NCBI GenBank assembly: GCA_944371905.1
Contig: CALVYA010000007.1
Location: 452-64,451 of the forward strand
Source: an uncultured Bacilli bacterium
Lineage (GTDB): Bacteria; Bacillota_I; Bacilli_A; RF39; UBA660
Direction of reading: 5' to 3'
Length of the DNA: 64,000 nucleotides
The notes under the pieces are model-generated. The model had not been told where the DNA came from, did not search any database, and saw nothing but the letters and a program-made list of their open reading frames with translations. Below are positions 1 to 54,169 of the stretch, in pieces. How positions within the stretch are numbered: the first letter of the stretch is position 1; every line of letters begins with the position of its first letter. The position numbers were made by a program, and so were the translations under genes.

Positions 1-2240
1 AAATAATTGAAGATGAGAATAGTAATATCACCTATGAAATTAGTGGAGTAGAAGAAGGTTATACACTTTTGCAACCAGGAGAGACCAATACAGCCAAAGT
101 AACAATCAAATATAAAAGTGGAGTAACGAATATCAGTGAAACAAAAAAAGAATTAATGTTAACCTTTATTTATGTAGAAAATAGTGGGACAACAGGAGGA
201 AATTCAGGAGACTCCACATCAGATACAGAAAATGTAGTATATCAATTAGGAGATACCATAAGTACAGAAAATATAGTAAGAAATGATAATAGAAGCTTTG
301 GCAATTTGTTTTATGCTATATCTAGTAATGATACAAAAGATAACACTACTATTAACGTAATAACAGACCTTGTTTCACATACAGAAATGTCTGTTGAAAA
401 TATCGTAAATAGTGATACAATAAGTGTCGCATTTAAACCATTATCAGCTGGAGGGAGTGTCCCGGTTACTTATATAGATGTAACTAATCCAAGATTACCT
501 ACAATGGAAGAAATAGGATATATAGCTAATTTTAAATATGATAGTAGCAAAAATTATGATGGAGAAACGTTTGAGATGACTCAGGTCATGTTTAATACAA
601 ATACTTCTACTAATGATAAATTTTTAACATCCACAACAAAAGATGGAAAATATTATACTTATACGATCAATGGAACACAATTAACCATTCATTTAGTAGA
701 TGCTAGTGAAATAGTGTGGATAAGAGCTATCATTACTCTGAATAAAGAGGATTTAGATAAATATCAAAGATATCAGATAGGTGATTCTGTAGAATTAATA
801 GATGGTTCAAAATGGTATGTAACCAAAGATAGTGGAACAGGAAATGCTATGGTAACTTTAATCAGTGAAAATGGAGCATCAAGTAATGGAAGTGTATTAA
901 CTTATGGAACATATAGTAGAGGATTTGATACTAGTGGAAGTAATATATATAATCAATTTAGTAGTACAAATATAGGATACTATGTAAAGAATACAGTAGA
1001 AAGTTATATAAAGAACGCTATAAAAAGTAATGGTGGAAATGATGCTACTACCATAGCTAGATTATTAACAAAAGGGGAATATGATCGGATCACTAAAAAT
1101 GATACGACTATACCAAGTTGGTTAAAGATACCAGGGGCATTTTGGATGATGACAAATACAGGGAATAGTGTATATTATTTTAATGGGAGTAGTTTATCTA
1201 CAACCACAACCTTAACTTCTAATTATAAAGTAAGACCAGTCATAACGACATTAAAGAGTAATTTGAAAGATCCTATATATTTAGTGGATCAAATTTTAAA
1301 AGATAATACGGAAAGAGATGGTAATCGTTTAAATTTTGAATCTACTAGTGAAGAGTCAAAAACTAATGGTTTATATTATACTAATCGAAGAACGATAAAT
1401 AATAAAATAACATATTTTTTTAGAGGAGCAGTAGAGAATAATTATGTATATTTTGCAGGACTTTACTGGAGAATTATACGAATTAATGAAGATTCTAGTA
1501 TTAGATTGATTTATCAAGGAATTAATTATAATACAATGGGAACAGATGCTACGATAGGAACAGGTACGTTTAATAGTGAAACCATTGGGGATAATGCTTA
1601 TGTAGGATATATGTATGGGGCAGCAGGAAGCAATACTTATACTTTAACTCATGCCAACACTAATGGAAGTGTTATCAAAGAGAAACTAGATACTTGGTAT
1701 CAGAATAATTTATTAAGTTATTCTAGGTATATAGCAGATAGTGGATTTTGTGGCGATCGAAGTATAGCAGAAGAACCTGGGACTTGGGTTTCTTATGATA
1801 CTGCATTAGGATATGCTAAAAATGAAACTTATTATGGTCCATATAATAGAGTAGAGAATGATGCTAGACACCCGTTATTTGAATGTCCTCAAAAAAATGA
1901 TTGGTTTACTCTAAAAGGTAATACCCAAGGGAACGAAGCGCTTAATTATCCAATTGGATTGCTCTCTTTAGATGAAATTGTTTATGCAGGGGGGAGTTAT
2001 TCAATAGAAAATACTAGTTATTATCTTTATACAGAAGATTATTATTGGACTATGAGTCCTTATGAATTTAACGGAAATGGTTCTTATGTAGGAGTTGTAT
2101 CTTACAATGGTGCTATAACTCGTATTAGTGTAGATTCGCCAACTAGAGGTATTAGACCTGTTATTAATTTAAAATCTGATGTTGCAATAATAAGTGGTAA
2201 TGGAACCAGTTCTAATCCTTACGTTGTTAAGACAAATTAA
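1..2240 (+). CDS. Secreted surface protein, 5'-truncated by the window edge (paralog of 52532..54169)
   Basis: The frame is open from nt 3 to TAA at 2238-2240, so the TTG at 69 in the ORF track is not the true start. The first ~60 aa match the end of the N-terminal module of 6472..7902 and 52532..54169. The C-terminal ~330 aa (LYYTN..YFFRGAVENNYV..YWRIIRINEDSSIRLIYQG..DSGFCGDRS..YPIGLLSLDEIVYAGG..IRPVINLK..GNGTSSNPYVV) are colinear with 52532..54169. An extra module ending YKVRPVITTLK lies at about nt 760-1260. Confidence 0.75.
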   Translation, partial: IIEDENSNITYEISGVEEGYTLLQPGETNTAKVTIKYKSGVTNISETKKELMLTFIYVENSGTTGGNSGDSTSDTENVVYQLGDTISTENIVRNDNRSFGNLFYAISSNDTKDNTTINVITDLVSHTEMSVENIVNSDTISVAFKPLSAGGSVPVTYIDVTNPRLPTMEEIGYIANFKYDSSKNYDGETFEMTQVMFNTNTSTNDKFLTSTTKDGKYYTYTINGTQLTIHLVDASEIVWIRAIITLNKEDLDKYQRYQIGDSVELIDGSKWYVTKDSGTGNAMVTLISENGASSNGSVLTYGTYSRGFDTSGSNIYNQFSSTNIGYYVKNTVESYIKNAIKSNGGNDATTIARLLTKGEYDRITKNDTTIPSWLKIPGAFWMMTNTGNSVYYFNGSSLSTTTTLTSNYKVRPVITTLKSNLKDPIYLVDQILKDNTERDGNRLNFESTSEESKTNGLYYTNRRTINNKITYFFRGAVENNYVYFAGLYWRIIRINEDSSIRLIYQGINYNTMGTDATIGTGTFNSETIGDNAYVGYMYGAAGSNTYTLTHANTNGSVIKEKLDTWYQNNLLSYSRYIADSGFCGDRSIAEEPGTWVSYDTALGYAKNETYYGPYNRVENDARHPLFECPQKNDWFTLKGNTQGNEALNYPIGLLSLDEIVYAGGSYSIENTSYYLYTEDYYWTMSPYEFNGNGSYVGVVSYNGAITRISVDSPTRGIRPVINLKSDVAIISGNGTSSNPYVVKTN

Positions 2241-3619: not shown

Positions 3620-5101
3620 ATGGTAAGGGTTGATATTATGTCTTTGGATAATAAAAAAAATTTATATGATGATGACATTAGTAAGACACAAAAATTAGAA
3701 TTAGAGCGTTATCAGAAATATTTAAAAAGTATTAAAAAATACGATCCTTTAGATGAAGAAGAGTATTTGTACCTTACTAGCGAAATGAGCAATATTATTA
3801 ATCATAGTGACGATTTATCAGATATTGAAGTATTAGAATTAACGAGTAAATTAGAAAAAATTGATTATAGCAAAGATTATACAATAGAATTATTAGAACT
3901 TACCAAAGAAATAAAACAAATAACGAAAACAAATCAAAAAGCGAGAAAAGAGTTAGAGATTCCAAAAGTAGATAAAAAAATAAATCCTAAAAAAGTGCAA
4001 GAAAAACCACTAACATCTACTTCGATATTGCCTAAAATAAATAATATCAAAAAGAAAGAAATACCTAAAAAGATAATGGTTGCTGATGCTAAAAAAACAG
4101 ATTCAAGGAAAGAGGTTCAAGAACCAAAAGAAAATCAAAGACCTACATTTAAAGAGTTAATTGATAAAAATAACAAAGATAATAATATTGAACATTTTAA
4201 CACAGAGCGTATTCATAAAATTAGAGTAGAGATGAATACACGAAGTAGTAATAAGAAAAAAAAGAAAAAACGAAAGATAGAAAAAGTGATATGGTCAACT
4301 ATTTTTGGTTGTTCTTTATGTGTCTTTGCCTTTCTTATATTGCGATATGTAAGGTGGGAATTTGAAAATAAAAGTGTAGAAGATCAAATTACAGATATTT
4401 ATGCTTTAGCTAATGTAGAAGAGACAGTGAACGAAGGAGCAATTACTAATCTTGGTGATTTACCTCAACAAGAAGTAACTGAAAGCGAAGACTCTTTTGT
4501 TCTTAGCGATTATTGGTATTATATGTCTATGTCTTTATTAGATGTGAATTTTGATGAGTTAAAGAAGAAAAATAATGAGACAGCTGGGTGGATTCAAGTA
4601 GCAGGGACTAATATTAATTATCCTTATGTTCATACTAGTAATAATGAATATTATTTAACTCATTCTTTTGATAAAAGTTATAATAGTGCTGGATGGGTAT
4701 ATTTAGATTATCGAAACGATCCTAATAGTTTTGGTAGAAATAATATTTTGTATGCTCATTCACGACTAGATAATACTATGTTTGGTAGTTTACGTGGAGT
4801 GATATCTCATTCTTGGTATACGAATCCTAATAATCATGTGGTTAAAATATCTACGCCATCTTTTAATTCGATCTGGCAAGTATTTAGTGTTTACACTATT
4901 GAACCAGAATCATATTATATTAAAACTAAATTTAATGATACAGAATTTGCTAAATTTTTAAATACTATTACAGCACGAAGTGTTTATAATTTTGGAGTAA
5001 CACCTTCGATCGAAGATAAAGTTTTAACATTGTCTTCTTGTTATTATGAAAATAAACGAGTGGTATTACATGCTAAATTAGTTAGATTAGAAGAAAAATA
5101 G
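3620..5101 (+). CDS. Class B sortase paralog with a long Lys-rich cytoplasmic N-terminal extension
   Basis: The C-terminal ~200 aa carry SrtB motifs: GWIQVAGTNINYPYVHTSNNEYYLTHSFDKSYNSAGWVYLDYRN, ILYAHSRLDNTMFGSL, VLTLSSC, RVVLHAKL. A single TM (VIWSTIFGCSLCVFAFLILRYV) lies at about aa 222, preceded by KKKKKKRK. The true start may be ATG 3638 (RBS aaggg). Confidence 0.8.
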   Translation: MVRVDIMSLDNKKNLYDDDISKTQKLELERYQKYLKSIKKYDPLDEEEYLYLTSEMSNIINHSDDLSDIEVLELTSKLEKIDYSKDYTIELLELTKEIKQITKTNQKARKELEIPKVDKKINPKKVQEKPLTSTSILPKINNIKKKEIPKKIMVADAKKTDSRKEVQEPKENQRPTFKELIDKNNKDNNIEHFNTERIHKIRVEMNTRSSNKKKKKKRKIEKVIWSTIFGCSLCVFAFLILRYVRWEFENKSVEDQITDIYALANVEETVNEGAITNLGDLPQQEVTESEDSFVLSDYWYYMSMSLLDVNFDELKKKNNETAGWIQVAGTNINYPYVHTSNNEYYLTHSFDKSYNSAGWVYLDYRNDPNSFGRNNILYAHSRLDNTMFGSLRGVISHSWYTNPNNHVVKISTPSFNSIWQVFSVYTIEPESYYIKTKFNDTEFAKFLNTITARSVYNFGVTPSIEDKVLTLSSCYYENKRVVLHAKLVRLEEK

Positions 5102-6279: not shown

Positions 6280-6465
6280 ATGTTAGAGAACGCTTTAGTA
6301 AAAGAAATCAATCATTTAGATAATCGAGAAGAGATGAATAAAATAGAAATTAATATGTATTCTGAATTAATAAAACAAAAACAAATGATAAATGATGATG
6401 AAGAAATAGCTAAAGAATTGTATGATCAATTAATTGATAAAAAAGATGAGAAAGATAGAGGTTAG
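6280..6465 (+). CDS. Small acidic helical protein, unknown function
   Basis: 61-aa ORF with an RBS, ending 6 nt before the next start. It is rich in E/D/K and I recognise no family. Confidence 0.45.
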   Translation: MLENALVKEINHLDNREEMNKIEINMYSELIKQKQMINDDEEIAKELYDQLIDKKDEKDRG

Positions 6466-6471
6466 AGTATT

Positions 6472-7902
6472 ATGTATAATAAGAAAAAAGTAATTATTAT
6501 TGTAATGATGATAGCAGTAGTATTAATGGTTGTAGTATATGCGGCACTTAGTACAAAGTTAATTATCAATGGTACTGGTAAAATTACTAGTACTTGGCAT
6601 GTGTTTTTTGAAAGCATTGAAACAGAGGAGTTAAGAGGGGAAGGTAGTAATAATGGGGATCCAATAATTACGGATACTTCTATTAAATTTAATGTAAATC
6701 TTAGAAAACCAGGAGATGGTATTACTTATTCTGCGGTATTAAAAAATGGTGGAAGTATTGATGCTATTATCAATAATATTGATGCATCTATGTCTGGTGC
6801 ATCTGTTGTTCAATATAGTGTAACGGGTATTAAAAAAGGCGAAAAATTACCAGCTGGTGCCAGTAAGACGATAACGATTACTGTAGATTTTGATCGTAAT
6901 GCTACTAGTATTCCTGCAGTTACTTCTAATGAGTTAATTGTTAATATAGAGTGTATTCAAGATGATGGTCAAGCGATACCAGAAGAGGATATTACAATTC
7001 AAAAAATTATGTTAAAGCCAGGGGATACTGCTTCTTCCTTTTTATCAGGACCAATTGCTAAATCATCTATAGAAAGTATTAATTTTACCAATACTAATGT
7101 AGTAGCATCTAATGCTATAGATAGTTGGGATGTATCTAGTGATGGTAAAGGTGGGGTAATGGCATGGTATACCGATAGTGACAATGATAATCTTTATGAG
7201 GTTACTATAGGTCAAAAAGGAGGCGTAGTGGCTAATAGTAATTCTAGTAATTTATTTAATGGATTATCCCAGTTAACGTCTATTAACTTTTCTCAATTTG
7301 ATACTTCTGAAGTTACCAATATGTCTGGCATGTTTCGGCACTGTTCTTCGTTAACTTCACTTGATGTTAGTAGTTTTAACACTAATAAAGTAACGGATAT
7401 GAGTTGGATGTTTTCTGGTTGTTCTAAGTTAACTAGTCTAGATTTAAGTAACTTTAATACTTCAAATGTAACAACGATGATGAGTATGTTTTATGGTACA
7501 ATTAAAATGAATGATTTAAATATCAGTAGTTTTAATACTAGTAAAGTGACAGATATGTCTGGAATGTTTTATTCTGCTCAAGGGATAGAAAATTTAAATT
7601 TAAATCACTTCGATACTTCTAATGTAACTACTATGGAAAGAATGTTTTCTGAGATGGCTTCATTAGTTAGGCTAGATATTAGTAGTTTTGAAACCCCAAG
7701 ACTTACTAATATGAATTATTTTTGTAATTATAATACCAAACTAAAATATATAGATATGAGAAAGATGAACATGGTAAGTATTGGTAGTCCAACAGAAGCT
7801 TTTGCCGGATTAGATAGTATTGAAGAAATTATAGTAAGAAGTACTGATGAACAATATATTATTAATAAAAGTCATGCTTCTTATCCAGTAATAGTAGCCT
7901 AG
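6472..7902 (+). CDS. Surface protein: TasA/camelysin-like N-terminal module plus DUF285/BspA-type leucine-rich repeats
   Basis: N-terminus is MYNKKK + hydrophobic helix + VVVYAALSTKLIINGTGKITSTW..LRKPGD..LKNGGSIDAIIN..NIECIQDDGQ, shared with 52532..54169. About 7 repeats of F.T(S/N).VT.M..MF...S.LTSLD.S lie at nt ~7255-7762 and match the DUF285 (PF03382-type) pattern. Confidence 0.8.
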   Translation: MYNKKKVIIIVMMIAVVLMVVVYAALSTKLIINGTGKITSTWHVFFESIETEELRGEGSNNGDPIITDTSIKFNVNLRKPGDGITYSAVLKNGGSIDAIINNIDASMSGASVVQYSVTGIKKGEKLPAGASKTITITVDFDRNATSIPAVTSNELIVNIECIQDDGQAIPEEDITIQKIMLKPGDTASSFLSGPIAKSSIESINFTNTNVVASNAIDSWDVSSDGKGGVMAWYTDSDNDNLYEVTIGQKGGVVANSNSSNLFNGLSQLTSINFSQFDTSEVTNMSGMFRHCSSLTSLDVSSFNTNKVTDMSWMFSGCSKLTSLDLSNFNTSNVTTMMSMFYGTIKMNDLNISSFNTSKVTDMSGMFYSAQGIENLNLNHFDTSNVTTMERMFSEMASLVRLDISSFETPRLTNMNYFCNYNTKLKYIDMRKMNMVSIGSPTEAFAGLDSIEEIIVRSTDEQYIINKSHASYPVIVA

Positions 7903-14002: not shown

Positions 14003-14818
14003 ATGTCTCATGGATTAATAAAAAAGTGTAGTAGTTATATACTTTCCATTATTTTTATTATGATGATTGCATTATCTATTTCTAAAAGTTTTCTATGGTT
14101 AAAAAGCTCAAACAAAACGAATAGTATTATGGATTCTATAACAAAAAAAGAATATAAAGAAGAAGTGATTGCTACTAATCAGGAATTATTTAATCCTCCT
14201 AATGATAAAAATGATTCTTATTGGGATTATCAAAATATTCCTTTTTTACAAGTAGATTTTAATGAGTTATTACAAGATAACGATGATACTGTTGGATGGA
14301 TTCAAGTGATAGGGACTAATATTGATTATCCTATTGTACAAGCGAAGGATAATGAGTTTTATTTGGACCATTCTTTTGATAAAAGTTATAACCAAGCAGG
14401 ATGGATATTTTCAGATTTTAGAAATAATCTAGATAATTTGAATCATAACACAATTATTTATGGTCATGCTAGATTAGACAATACTATGTTTGGCAGTTTA
14501 AAAGATATTTTAAATGAGAACTGGTTTCACGAAAAAGATAATCATATTATTAAAGTTTCTACTCCCATGCATAATATGATATTTCAAATATTTAGTGTTT
14601 ATGTTATTCCCAAAGAAAGTTACTATATAACTAGTGCCTTTCATAGTGATACTGCTTTTTTAGAATTTTTAAATACTATTACTGATCGTAGTATTATAGA
14701 TTTTTCTACTACTACTAATATTAGAGATCGAATTTTAACATTGTCTACTTGTAAAGATAATTTGGGAAATAGATTGGTACTTCATGCTAAACTAATAAAA
14801 AAAGAAACTCGCTCTTAA
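14003..14818 (+). CDS. srtB: Class B sortase
   Basis: N-terminal TM, then GWIQVIGTNIDYPIVQAKDNEFYLDHSFDKSYNQAGWIFSDFRN, IIYGHARLDNTMFGSL, ILTLSTC, RLVLHAKL. Confidence 0.9.
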   Translation: MSHGLIKKCSSYILSIIFIMMIALSISKSFLWLKSSNKTNSIMDSITKKEYKEEVIATNQELFNPPNDKNDSYWDYQNIPFLQVDFNELLQDNDDTVGWIQVIGTNIDYPIVQAKDNEFYLDHSFDKSYNQAGWIFSDFRNNLDNLNHNTIIYGHARLDNTMFGSLKDILNENWFHEKDNHIIKVSTPMHNMIFQIFSVYVIPKESYYITSAFHSDTAFLEFLNTITDRSIIDFSTTTNIRDRILTLSTCKDNLGNRLVLHAKLIKKETRS

Positions 14819-52467: not shown

Positions 52468-52498
52468 TTGAAAATTTCCTGGGGAGGGGGGGTATAAT
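52468..52498 (+). promoter_or_regulatory. Promoter of 52532..54169 with a G4-A-G7 tract in a 19-nt spacer
   Basis: TTGAAA (52468-52473), spacer atttcctggggaggggggg (52474-52492, 19 nt), then TATAAT (52493-52498). RBS ggagtga and ATG 52532 follow. Confidence 0.6.
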
Positions 52499-52531
52499 GT
52501 ATATAGGATAAACTAAAACGGAGTGATAAGG

Positions 52532-54169
52532 ATGTATAGGAATAAGAAGAAAATAGTGATAGGAATACTATGTATAGTAGTATTAATCATGGTAGTAGTG
52601 TATGCAGCATTTAATACAAGATTAACGATTAACGGAACAGGAAATATCACAAGTACTTGGAATATAGAAATAACTTCTATTACTAGTAGTATTACAGGAA
52701 CAGCTTATAATATAACAGAACCAACCTATAGTGGAACGAATGCAACTTTTAATGCAGGATTAAAGAAACCGGGAGATAAGATAGAATATAATATTACAAT
52801 TACCAATAATGGAAGTATAGATGCTATTATTAATACAGTAGATATAAAAACAACAGGAAGTTATGTTATTTTATACACAGTAGAAGGAATACAGAATCAA
52901 GAGAGATTAGCAAGTAAAGGTAGTAAGACATTTAAAATCATAGTAGAGTTTGATAGGGAAGCTACTAGTATACCAAGTGATACTACAAAAGAAATCATAA
53001 TGAATATCGAGTGTATTCAAGATGATGGACAACAATTAACTCCAAGTGATCCTAATATTGATAATGAAGATACTGGATTAACACTAGTAAATGCTATATT
53101 AAGAGATAACCAAGCTCAAAGTGATGAGAGTATAGATTTTAGCAAAACGAGTGAAGAAGATGGAACGAAAGGATTATATTATACTAATAAAAATACAGAG
53201 GATAATAAAACAACGTATTATTTTAGAGGAGCAGTAGAGAATAACTATGTTAAATTTGGTGTGTATCAACAAAAGCTTTCTAAATATAGAGGATATTATT
53301 CTAGTACAATGACAGGAGGACATTTTGAATATGATACATTAAGCGAGTGTCAAAATGCTAGTAGTTTTAATCAAAGTTGTACAGAGGTTGTATACGCTAA
53401 TTCAGGAGATCCAATGTATTGGAGAATTGTAAGAATCAATGAAGATGGAAGTATTAGATTAATCTATCAAGGGATAGCTCCAAATATAATAGAAGATGGT
53501 GCAACCATAGGTGAATATAACTTTAATATTGATAATAATGATAATGCCTATGTAGGATATATGTATGGAACACCAGGAAGTAGTAGTTATGAGGAGACAC
53601 ACGCCAATATCAATGATAGTATAATCAAGACAGCATTAGATACTTGGTATGATGAGTATTTATTGAGCTATGCTTCTTATATGGCAGATAGTGGATTCTG
53701 TGGCGATAGAAGTATCTATAAAGAGGAAGGAACAGGATTAGGGTATGAAAAGAAAAGAACATTTTACGCTTCTTATAATAGATTAGAAAATATAAATCAA
53801 CCACAGTTCATATGTTTGCAAAGTAACGATTTATATACAATAAAGAATAGTGTAAAAGGAAATAAAGCCTTAGATTATCCAATAGGATTAATTACTGCGG
53901 ATGAAATAGTTTATGCAGGTGGATCAAGGAGATTAAATGAAAGTTGCTATTTGAATATCGATAGTACTTATTTTACAATGACTCCTTTTTCTTACGACTA
54001 TGGTACTTACATCTATAGTATTGATAGTGGGACACTTTTGGATTCCAAGCCGACAACTGGTGTACTGAATGTCGCGCTTGCTCGTCCTGTTATTAATTTA
54101 AAGGCAACAGTAGAAATCTCTAGTGGAGATGGAACTAGTAGTAATCCTTATGTGATAAAAACTAGTTAA
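52532..54169 (+). CDS. Surface protein: TasA/camelysin-like N-terminal module plus conserved C-terminal domain (paralog of 1..2240)
   Basis: MYRNKKK + helix + VVVYAAFNTRLTINGTGNITSTW..LKKPGDKIEYNITITNNGSIDAIIN..NIECIQDDGQ. The C-terminal domain reads LYYTNKNT..YYFRGAVENNYV..YWRIVRINEDGSIRLIYQG..NAYVGYMYG..DSGFCGDRS..YPIGLITADEIVYAGG..ARPVINLK..GDGTSSNPYVIK. Confidence 0.8.
   Translation: MYRNKKKIVIGILCIVVLIMVVVYAAFNTRLTINGTGNITSTWNIEITSITSSITGTAYNITEPTYSGTNATFNAGLKKPGDKIEYNITITNNGSIDAIINTVDIKTTGSYVILYTVEGIQNQERLASKGSKTFKIIVEFDREATSIPSDTTKEIIMNIECIQDDGQQLTPSDPNIDNEDTGLTLVNAILRDNQAQSDESIDFSKTSEEDGTKGLYYTNKNTEDNKTTYYFRGAVENNYVKFGVYQQKLSKYRGYYSSTMTGGHFEYDTLSECQNASSFNQSCTEVVYANSGDPMYWRIVRINEDGSIRLIYQGIAPNIIEDGATIGEYNFNIDNNDNAYVGYMYGTPGSSSYEETHANINDSIIKTALDTWYDEYLLSYASYMADSGFCGDRSIYKEEGTGLGYEKKRTFYASYNRLENINQPQFICLQSNDLYTIKNSVKGNKALDYPIGLITADEIVYAGGSRRLNESCYLNIDSTYFTMTPFSYDYGTYIYSIDSGTLLDSKPTTGVLNVALARPVINLKATVEISSGDGTSSNPYVIKTS

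Follow-up and report, generated by a model that had tools for sequence, protein, structure and literature searches.

Fibres of the TasA superfamily, their maturation by SipW-type signal peptidases, the DUF5305 family and operon-encoded tip and anchor subunits are already known, and work on these fibres has so far treated them as homopolymeric biofilm scaffolds with a few accessory subunits encoded in the operon. In Bacillus subtilis TasA (TapA-SipW-TasA; PDB 5OF1, 8AUR), the strand after the cleavage site is donated to the next subunit, and a further donor strand comes from the accessory subunit TapA. BsaA of Clostridium perfringens (SipW-BsaA-BsaB-BsaC) is a remote, SipW-processed TasA homologue with its signal at residues 1-27 (PMC7395162, PMC11580942). 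AbpX and Tafi are donor-strand-complemented TasA-superfamily fibres with minor, tip and anchor subunits, and the hallmark of their loci is a signal peptidase I (SPase I; TIGR02228) with many transmembrane (TM) segments together with a DUF5305 "SPase accessory" protein (bioRxiv 10.64898/2026.01.04.697558; PMC11821415). Here we describe a stretch of 64,000 nucleotides (nt; hereafter the window, G+C 27.5%) within a 99,002-bp contig of an uncultured Bacilli bacterium, in which three genes at 52532..54169, 6472..7902 and 1..2240 (all on the + strand) encode a shared N-terminal module (N-module) followed by passenger domains. We consider it probable, with moderate confidence, that this module is a SipW-type-processed, TasA/AbpX-like fibre-subunit handle that displays swapped passengers.

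The gene at 52532..54169 encodes 545 amino acids (aa) counted from its ATG. This is the right start because the homologues also begin with MYRNKKK, which bears out the MY(R)NKKK start of the original prediction, and because the GTG at 52523 chosen by the open reading frame (ORF) finder falls between the ribosome binding site (RBS) GGAG and the ATG. Its N-terminus and that of the 476-aa product of 6472..7902 align over ~173 aa (51% identity, BLASTP E=2e-59) with every motif quoted in that prediction present, and the N-module common to the two proteins comprises 165 aa. The third gene is cut by the window edge. Its ORF (3..2240, frame 3), which had been read as beginning inside the module, is identical to residues 109-853 of an 853-aa protein on L005, another assembly of the locus holding this gene, and the N-terminus of the complete protein (MYRRKRL...VMSLGYAALSQYVELEGIASIDRSW) matched the module profile at 99.6% in hhalign (E=6e-25). 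The window segment 1..2240 is thus the 3' part (aa 109-853) of this paralogue and contains the rest of its N-module, a middle domain ending in RPVITTLK, and a C-domain as in 52532. Past the module the passengers diverge as had been proposed: the 6472 protein continues into DUF285 repeats, and the 52532 protein shares its ~360-aa C-domain with the C-terminus of the truncated ORF (47% identity, E=9e-98).

The module also occurs as a stand-alone protein, and the genes around the stand-alone copies are those of described fibre systems. A word-indexed search, in which few close relatives were found, returned stand-alone homologues of 166 aa that were 37% identical to the module. At their locus, three module paralogues are followed by a 389-aa peptidase and then by a DUF5305 protein. 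The C-terminal domain of the peptidase passes TIGR02228 (98 bits, cutoff 51.85) and has the SGSMSP and HR motifs, and several TM-like segments precede this catalytic domain (about ten windows over the threshold, some of them overlapping). It is a SipW-type enzyme of the archaeal/endoplasmic reticulum-type signal peptidase I class (S26, Ser/His) with PF17231 adjacent. The multi-TM N-terminal domain to which it is fused (L001 9996-11165; 382-aa orthologues in L075-L084) is ~250 aa long and has no Pfam match. This fusion and the pairing with DUF5305 differ from the TasA system, and the multi-TM fusion agrees with the "ten-TM SPase I" of AbpX loci.

Scanning one genome per species with a 9-sequence alignment gave 61 loci, almost all from uncultured gut "Bacilli" or "Tenericutes" metagenome-assembled genomes (MAGs). 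Peptidase and DUF5305 genes were present downstream on the same strand in 33 of the 61, and 98 stand-alone modules lay within 8 kb of a peptidase, in arrays of up to ten. The fused genes were mostly elsewhere, as 16/20 had no peptidase within 8 kb. Four loci (L020 2827-9653, L026, L030, L034) had six to ten tandem stand-alone paralogues of 170-210 aa, each with its own signal, 5' of the peptidase-DUF5305 pair; arrays of this size suggest heteropolymeric fibres or antigenic variants. Six further loci related to the window's lineage, found via the DUF5305 homologues of a close relative, contained a trio of a 165-174-aa module, a 382-aa S26 peptidase and DUF5305, with aspS just upstream in five of the six (hisS-aspS where the contig reaches that far).

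This gene content is exactly that of AbpX loci (minor subunits, tip/anchor, TIGR02228 SPase, DUF5305). AbpX of Pyrodictium abyssi and its bacterial and archaeal homologues are ~160-aa subunits with a beta-rich core, as in the module, and both their SPase I signal and their amphipathic donor strand at the N-terminus have predicted counterparts in the module. The haloarchaeal Tafi locus (TafA/C/E; PMC11821415) likewise places a dedicated SPase I (TafD) and a DUF5305 protein (TafG) beside several small donor-strand subunits, and one end of both its specialised tip subunit (TafC) and its anchor subunit (TafF) adopts the subunit fold. Unlike the window family, Tafi is archaeal and secreted by the twin-arginine (Tat) route, and the likeness rests on gene content.

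Several observations on the window's own genome weigh against extending this context to it. No S26 peptidase was present in the window or on the 99-kb contig (ORF scan for the catalytic motif; phmmer with the SipW-type peptidase), nor did the contig contain a stand-alone subunit. None of the six trio contigs was tied to the window's organism or came from a sample that holds the window's contig; L084 is from the same project and a different sample. The Hadza MAG CAKPHC01 is a syntenic close relative (GyrA 87%, GyrB 93%, MurG 81% identical). It carries the S26-DUF5305 pair and at least eight fused genes, some of which occupy the same insertion sites. We consider it unlikely that the window's organism has no SipW-like peptidase at all.

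Within the 52532 protein, aa 1-25 (52532..52606, +) are predicted to be a Sec signal peptide consisting of MYRNKKK, a hydrophobic helix of ~18 residues, and VYA, with a SipW-type site at VYA↓AF (arrow, predicted cut). A conserved N-terminal extension follows (aa 26-43, AFNTRLTINGTGNITSTW; 52607..52660, +), which is a candidate donor strand, and then a beta-sandwich core (aa 44-163; 52661..53020, +) with LKKPGD, NNGSIDA and a C-terminal ...IECIQ motif, predicted as nine strands with a predicted local distance difference test score (pLDDT) of ~90. Stand-alone modules terminate at the equivalent of Q163. In the 52532 protein, a linker (aa 164-184, DDGQQLTPSDPNIDNEDTGLT; 53021..53083, +), where AlphaFold places a short strand at residues 175-181, leads into the passenger.

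The family motif (276 of 309 collected proteins) is M-[AV]-[VI]-G-Y-A↓A-F-[SA]-[TQ]-x-L-x-I-x-G-T-x-x-I-x-S-x-W, with small residues at -3 and -1, an aromatic residue at -2, and A-F at +1/+2. By eye, (G/V)YA↓AF resembles the TasA site TWA↓AF; in full, TWA↓AFND compares with (G/V)YA↓AF(S/N)T here, and LKPGD then NNGSL follow in TasA in the same order as in the module. Unlike TasA, the module is smaller than the mature protein and has ~19 extra residues between the cleavage site and LKPGD. AbpX homologues share the aromatic residue at mature position 2, and differ at mature position 4, where the module has T or Q and not the acidic residue linked to Ca2+ coordination. On this motif, we infer cleavage at VYA↓AF by a SipW-type peptidase. 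The helix carries no lipobox and its Cys is not conserved, and a lipoprotein reading was rejected.

The segment after the predicted site (L.I.GT..I.S.W) is the most conserved part of the module, with L31 and W43 invariant and conservation of at least 90% at I33 and G35. In the AlphaFold model of the N-module (pLDDT 83), a helix at residues 3-27 is followed by the unplaced residues 28-39 and a nine-strand sandwich. Residues 28-39 have pLDDT <50 both in this model and in the full-length 52532 model (pLDDT 82), each of which is a monomer. In BsaA, residues 28-38 are likewise disordered in monomer models, and they insert into the next subunit. By hhalign, extension aa 26-43 is collinear with the AbpX donor strand QWSETLSLSATI. 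The conserved, unplaced strand and the cleavage motif together are indirect but coherent evidence for donor-strand complementation. In BsaA, the inserted strand is locked by an N35-K74 isopeptide bond catalyzed by E56. N34 and K78/K79 are present in the 52532 and 6472 proteins, and the 853-aa paralogue has neither N34 nor K-P-G-D.

The same N-terminus could instead be an uncleaved signal-anchor, making these type II membrane proteins in which the helix stays in the membrane and the immunoglobulin (Ig)-like module is a stalk, with no fibre. The helix is long enough for a permanent membrane anchor, which counts against the fibre-subunit reading: the hydrophobic stretch spans ~18-20 residues, and AlphaFold draws a single helix over residues 3-28 through VYAAF. 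The absence of a peptidase gene from the 99-kb contig and the solitary placement of the fused genes fit this alternative, as does the lack of any other anchor, since the sortase motif [LIS]P.[TSA][GANS] (LPXTG-type) occurs nowhere in the three window proteins and none has a C-terminal TM anchor (their C-termini are ...NPYVIKTS, ...SYPVIVA and ...NPYVVKTN). However, TasA and BsaA also have long SipW-type signals, and the small residues at -1/-3 and A-F at +1/+2 are kept across hundreds of members, as at the TasA site. A plain stalk would not need an invariant L.I.GT..I.S.W strand that AlphaFold leaves unplaced, and stand-alone homologues with the same N-terminus adjoin a dedicated signal peptidase. 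We therefore consider a retained anchor rather unlikely.

A helix followed by a beta-sandwich is also the architecture of type IV or archaeal pilins, in which, once a prepilin peptidase had cut, the helix would remain as the assembly interface, and Foldseek returned a weak match to the Sulfolobus AAP filament (E=0.06, ranks 47-48). However, the module has no class III signal and no G/A↓F-hydrophobic motif before the helix; its conserved small-x-small site lies after the helix, the linked peptidase is S26 and not an A24 prepilin peptidase, and no pilus ATPase or platform genes were called in the annotated operon loci. We give this reading next to no credence and reject it because of where the motif lies and which type of peptidase is linked.

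Direct comparison with the TasA superfamily went largely against the fibre-subunit reading. Against Peptidase_M73 (PF12389), to which the original prediction had likened the module, scores were 12-15 bits (cutoff 22.5): 12.3 bits (E=0.15) for the full 52532 protein and 15.2 bits (E=0.02) for the N-module, over aa 79-125 only, the stretch matched being just LKKPGD..NNGS. Sub-threshold matches to this model occurred in 18/36 family members (best 4.6e-4). The TIGR04088 signal model gave no match at E<=1 in the three window proteins or the stand-alone homologues, though this model is short and HMMER filters may drop weak matches. Foldseek comparison of the predicted structures returned generic Ig-like folds and no TasA: for both models against the PDB the best matches were ~2e-3 or weaker, with no TasA-superfamily entry in the top 50, and there was no match at E<=1e-3 for either model against the PDB or for the full-length one against BFVD. 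When the PDB was searched by sequence and profile (N-module, 36-sequence profile, full-length profile), nothing significant emerged, with TasA reached by the 36-sequence profile at E=0.35-0.67 only.

Pairwise profile alignment was more favorable, and depended on what was aligned. With profile A3, hhalign gave 69% to TasA (P=4e-5) and 75% to P. abyssi AbpX (P=2.6e-5). The AbpX alignment spanned the full length, running collinear from the signal through to VEQN/YVQN at the C-terminus, and shuffled controls gave P of at least 0.17. In the TasA sequence used, part of the mature N-terminal region (~51 residues from FNDIKSKD) agreed with the PDB alignment, and the AbpX sequence came from a preprint supplement. 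Several points again weigh against homology. With a broader 442-sequence profile the values fell to 46% for TasA and 30% for AbpX, and with mature parts only to 40% (P=3e-4) and 1.7% (P=0.03), so that the module's similarity to AbpX, unlike its gene content, is weak (30-75% with the signal, 1.7% without). Much of the signal thus stems from the signal peptide, and the mature-only match to TasA is confined to LKPGD..NNGSL, a motif common to DUF11, CARDB and DUF7507. Together with the HYDIN-type Ig domain, these families match the LxxPGD...N.G motif at least as often as M73 does. At the sequence level, homology to the TasA superfamily is suggestive and not established.

This pattern raises the alternative that these are ordinary secreted proteins with a generic CARDB/DUF11-type Ig domain, in which the peptidase only removes the signal and the module is a non-polymerizing spacer or wall-spanning domain. 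Sub-threshold Pfam matches to DUF7507 (29/36), HYDIN Ig (22), DUF11 (20) and CARDB (16), compared with Peptidase_M73 (18/36), would be expected of such a domain, as would generic Ig-like sandwiches as the only Foldseek result. The module profile also matches multi-repeat proteins of 2,500-5,000 aa with 18-36 such domains. However, arrays of up to ten 165-210-aa paralogues with their own signals, upstream of SPase-DUF5305, are the signature of a pilin or fibre-subunit locus, the same peptidase/DUF5305 pair accompanies proven donor-strand fibres, and the conserved N-terminal strand lies outside the folded core. We judge a plain Ig spacer improbable. The TasA-like fibre-subunit reading of the original prediction is partly supported: it stands mainly on the SipW-type peptidase and DUF5305 context of the stand-alone homologues and on the motifs, and its expected matches to Peptidase_M73, TIGR04088 and the TasA structure failed.

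Passengers. The 476-aa paralogue (6472..7902, +) has its N-module at aa 1-163 (6472..6960) fused to DUF285/PARCEL leucine-rich repeats (LRRs). Its passenger passes DUF285 (PF03382; 152.8 bits, cutoff 25, E=4e-45) and TIGR02167 (182.8 bits, cutoff 30, E=4e-55, 6 repeats). The passenger C-domain of 52532 (aa 185-545 plus stop codon, 53084..54169, +) is predicted to have a mixed alpha/beta fold and has no known relative. It had more than 6,582 homologues, none with a Pfam assignment, and no relative in the PDB or BFVD by structure or profile. The N-module was present in 109 of the 119 listed homologues (the query's own cluster excluded), which makes the combination of module and C-domain itself a large family of 480-570-aa proteins; most of the ten without a module match look like N-terminally truncated fragments.

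The tail of the C-domain (W/F.M(S/T)P...RPVINLK...NPY) is distantly DUF6273-like. The 52532 protein had no match to DUF6273 (PF19789, cutoff 23.5 bits) at E<=0.1. A homologue that is 48% identical, P0272, scored 22.7 bits (E=1e-4) over its last 57 aa, just under the cutoff, and five other fused members exceed the cutoff by a clear margin (best 3e-15). A C-type-lectin-like fold is reported for DUF6273, which is also found in phage receptor-binding proteins, and the ~360-aa C-domain may be lectin-like. The middle domain of the 853-aa paralogue (window ~180..1290, aa 170-540) also ends with W..MT...RPVITTLK, which places two DUF6273-like-tailed domains in series. C390 and C428 are invariant across the C-domain family and may form a disulfide. 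The 52532 C-domain contains an insertion of ~49 aa with two Cys (...TLSECQNASSFNQSCTEVVY..., aa 244-293, 53261..53410) that the 853-aa paralogue lacks.

Among 96 other fused members, the passengers included DUF285 (6), DUF6273 (5), Flg_new (5), BspA-type LRR_5 (3), PT-HINT, phage tail collar, dockerin, CBM_X2 and Laminin_G_3, and most had no Pfam match. Such diversity is typical of adhesins and toxins. These passengers set the window family apart from the described fibres: unlike AbpX, the window proteins carry 300-700 aa beyond the module and their genes are solitary among housekeeping genes, many of them behind poly-G promoters, and unlike the dispersed window family, the bsa genes form a cluster, with no large passenger on BsaA. 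The bsa locus resembles the window family in its several paralogues and nearby sortase genes. Three sortase-domain paralogues are on the contig, at window 3620..5101, window 14003..14818 and L008 4047-4904 (right of the window). The first, located between two family genes, encodes a 493-aa protein whose long N-terminal region is rich in Lys and which has one TM segment and, at its C-terminus, the sortase domain (Pfam E=4e-8).

Family size and placement. From three copies, the original prediction had proposed a lineage-specific expansion, and the expansion is larger than that. The 99,002-bp contig has five members (P0257, 490 aa; P0229, 500 aa; and the 853-aa, 476-aa and 545-aa proteins), each solitary among housekeeping operons at the ftsQ-region/ruvAB, priA, gyrA, gpr/spoIIP and pheT/ylbD. 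At E<=1e-3, an exhaustive search with the module profile retrieved 9,284 protein clusters (50% identity), of which 385 reached E<=1e-30. The best 150 clusters comprised 36 stand-alone proteins (<=235 aa), 102 proteins of 250-1,100 aa that start with the module (residue 1), and 9 proteins of 2,500-5,000 aa with 18-36 matched stretches. The window proteins are probably members of a very large modular family, secreted and surface-displayed, in uncultured low-GC gut Bacilli. Family loci were also found in MAGs with distant labels, namely L037, L041, L044, L056 and L064 (CAYRLX01 "Muribaculaceae"), L047 ("Sphaerochaetaceae") and L070 ("Saccharibacteria"), and these represent either horizontal spread or mis-binned or mislabelled low-GC Bacilli contigs. 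Sporulation and cell-wall genes are also present: the window itself encodes Gpr, SpoIIP and YlbD_coat, and the contig just outside it encodes MurG and MurB.

Promoter cassettes. Most fused genes of the lineage are preceded by a cassette with the consensus TTG(A/C)(A/C)A, 7-9 nt, a poly-G tract (G10-G14 or interrupted) and TATAAT, with observed spacers of 18-21 nt. Upstream of 52532 it lies at 52468..52498 (+) and consists of TTGAAA (-35), ATTTCCT, GGGGAGGGGGGG (52481..52492) and TATAAT (-10), with a 19-nt spacer. CGGAG follows ~20 nt past the -10 box, and then the ATG; it contains the RBS GGAG (52520..52523, +), 8 nt before the ATG at 52532, and is invariant in the upstream alignment. Conservation upstream of fused genes reaches ~170 nt. 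The cassette was found at L005 13533-13563 (the 853-aa gene), L073 4065-4095 and L074 4343-4375, near 9930 in L013-L018 and L025, and near 19370 in L079-L082. The tract is G12 for the 853-aa gene (in L005) and for P0257, G10 and G4AG7 for genes of the closest species, and G10-G11 for a 483-aa member of another species. Seven paralogues in CAKPHC01 have the cassette with G10-G12, one of them G5AG5.

All 16 G/C runs of at least 9 in 1.32 Mb of fetched loci were immediately upstream of a fused family gene, and of 143 stand-alone operon genes not one had the cassette upstream. Scanning metagenome contigs for the pattern gave only five additional cassette loci; the downstream protein was readable in two, both family members, and two others repeated the L079 leader sequence. 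The tract also varies in length. An identical P0257 protein had G12 in one sample and G14 in another, and L080 had G11 and L082 G10 between identical flanks. These tract-length differences suggest slipped-strand phase variation of promoter strength, with one switch per gene.

Promoter-spacer homopolymer switches are known from Neisseria porA (poly-G) and opc (poly-C), Mycoplasma hyorhinis vlp (poly-A) and Bordetella fim (poly-C). As in those promoters, the homopolymer here sits exactly between the -35 and -10 boxes of surface-protein genes, each family member has its own tract, and length varies between isolates or assemblies. Here, the effect on transcription is predicted from the sequence. 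Two points count against a switch of this kind. Homopolymer lengths in short-read assemblies carry some error, and the tract of 52532 itself is an interrupted G4AG7 that is the same in three assemblies, so this copy may be locked. Paralogues and orthologues have a length-variable homopolymer of at least about 9 nt in the -35/-10 spacer, whereas the 52532 tract is not of this kind. The 6472 gene lacks a long tract, and P0229 has only a G5 remnant. Directly 5' of 6472, the window has a 61-aa, highly acidic ORF (6280..6465) that is kept in three other assemblies, and 6472, which has no poly-G cassette, may be co-transcribed with it. From the cassette through the gene into ruvA, the P0257 loci L074 4337 and L073 4059 are 99.5% identical. 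Yet 5' of the cassette the two assemblies are unrelated (rsgA-rpe in one, murB-ftsQ in the other), which reflects either a recombination event involving the ~170-nt upstream regions of paralogues or a chimeric assembly at this repeat.

In the fibre-subunit reading, the stand-alone subunit encoded by the core operon would be processed by its dedicated peptidase/DUF5305 complex and build a TasA/AbpX-like fibre. The same peptidase would cut the fused proteins at VYA↓AF, and the freed N-terminal strand would enter the sandwich of a neighboring subunit by donor-strand complementation. Fused proteins would in this way plug into, or cap, the fibre of stand-alone subunits and leave their C-terminal passengers exposed, the DUF285 LRR domain in 6472 and the ~360-aa domain in 52532. 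Each fused gene with its own G10-G14 promoter would probably switch independently through slipped-strand mispairing. A more speculative extension, which we hold only tentatively, is a "plug-and-play" display in reduced-genome gut Bacilli in which scattered fused adhesin, lectin and toxin subunits, each poly-G-switched, would load into or onto the core-operon fibre by strand exchange to give a combinatorial, phase-variable adhesin coat. Equally tentative is its corollary that the N-module would be a sorting and assembly signal as general as LPXTG/sortase or class III pilin signals.

We found no description in the literature of a fibre subunit serving as the N-terminal handle of a dispersed, passenger-swapping family in uncultured gut Bacilli, or of the 360-aa orphan domain or the poly-G promoter cassettes; to our knowledge, no poly-G promoter switch has been reported for TasA-superfamily genes or for this lineage. 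With more than 6,500 homologues but neither a Pfam assignment nor any relative by structure, the C-domain is a worthwhile structural target, and the poly-G cassette is a simple sequence signature for finding the family. Human and animal gut metagenomes are rich in proteins of this family, which are encoded by bacteria never yet grown in culture. In this lineage, hundreds to thousands of different proteins have come to bear the putative subunit domain as their N-terminal handle. Should the handle operate through donor-strand exchange, it would be a general Gram-positive means of surface display that needs no sortase, and a ready-made scaffold for protein engineering. The poly-G cassettes predict that a gut commensal lineage would vary these proteins stochastically, gene by gene.

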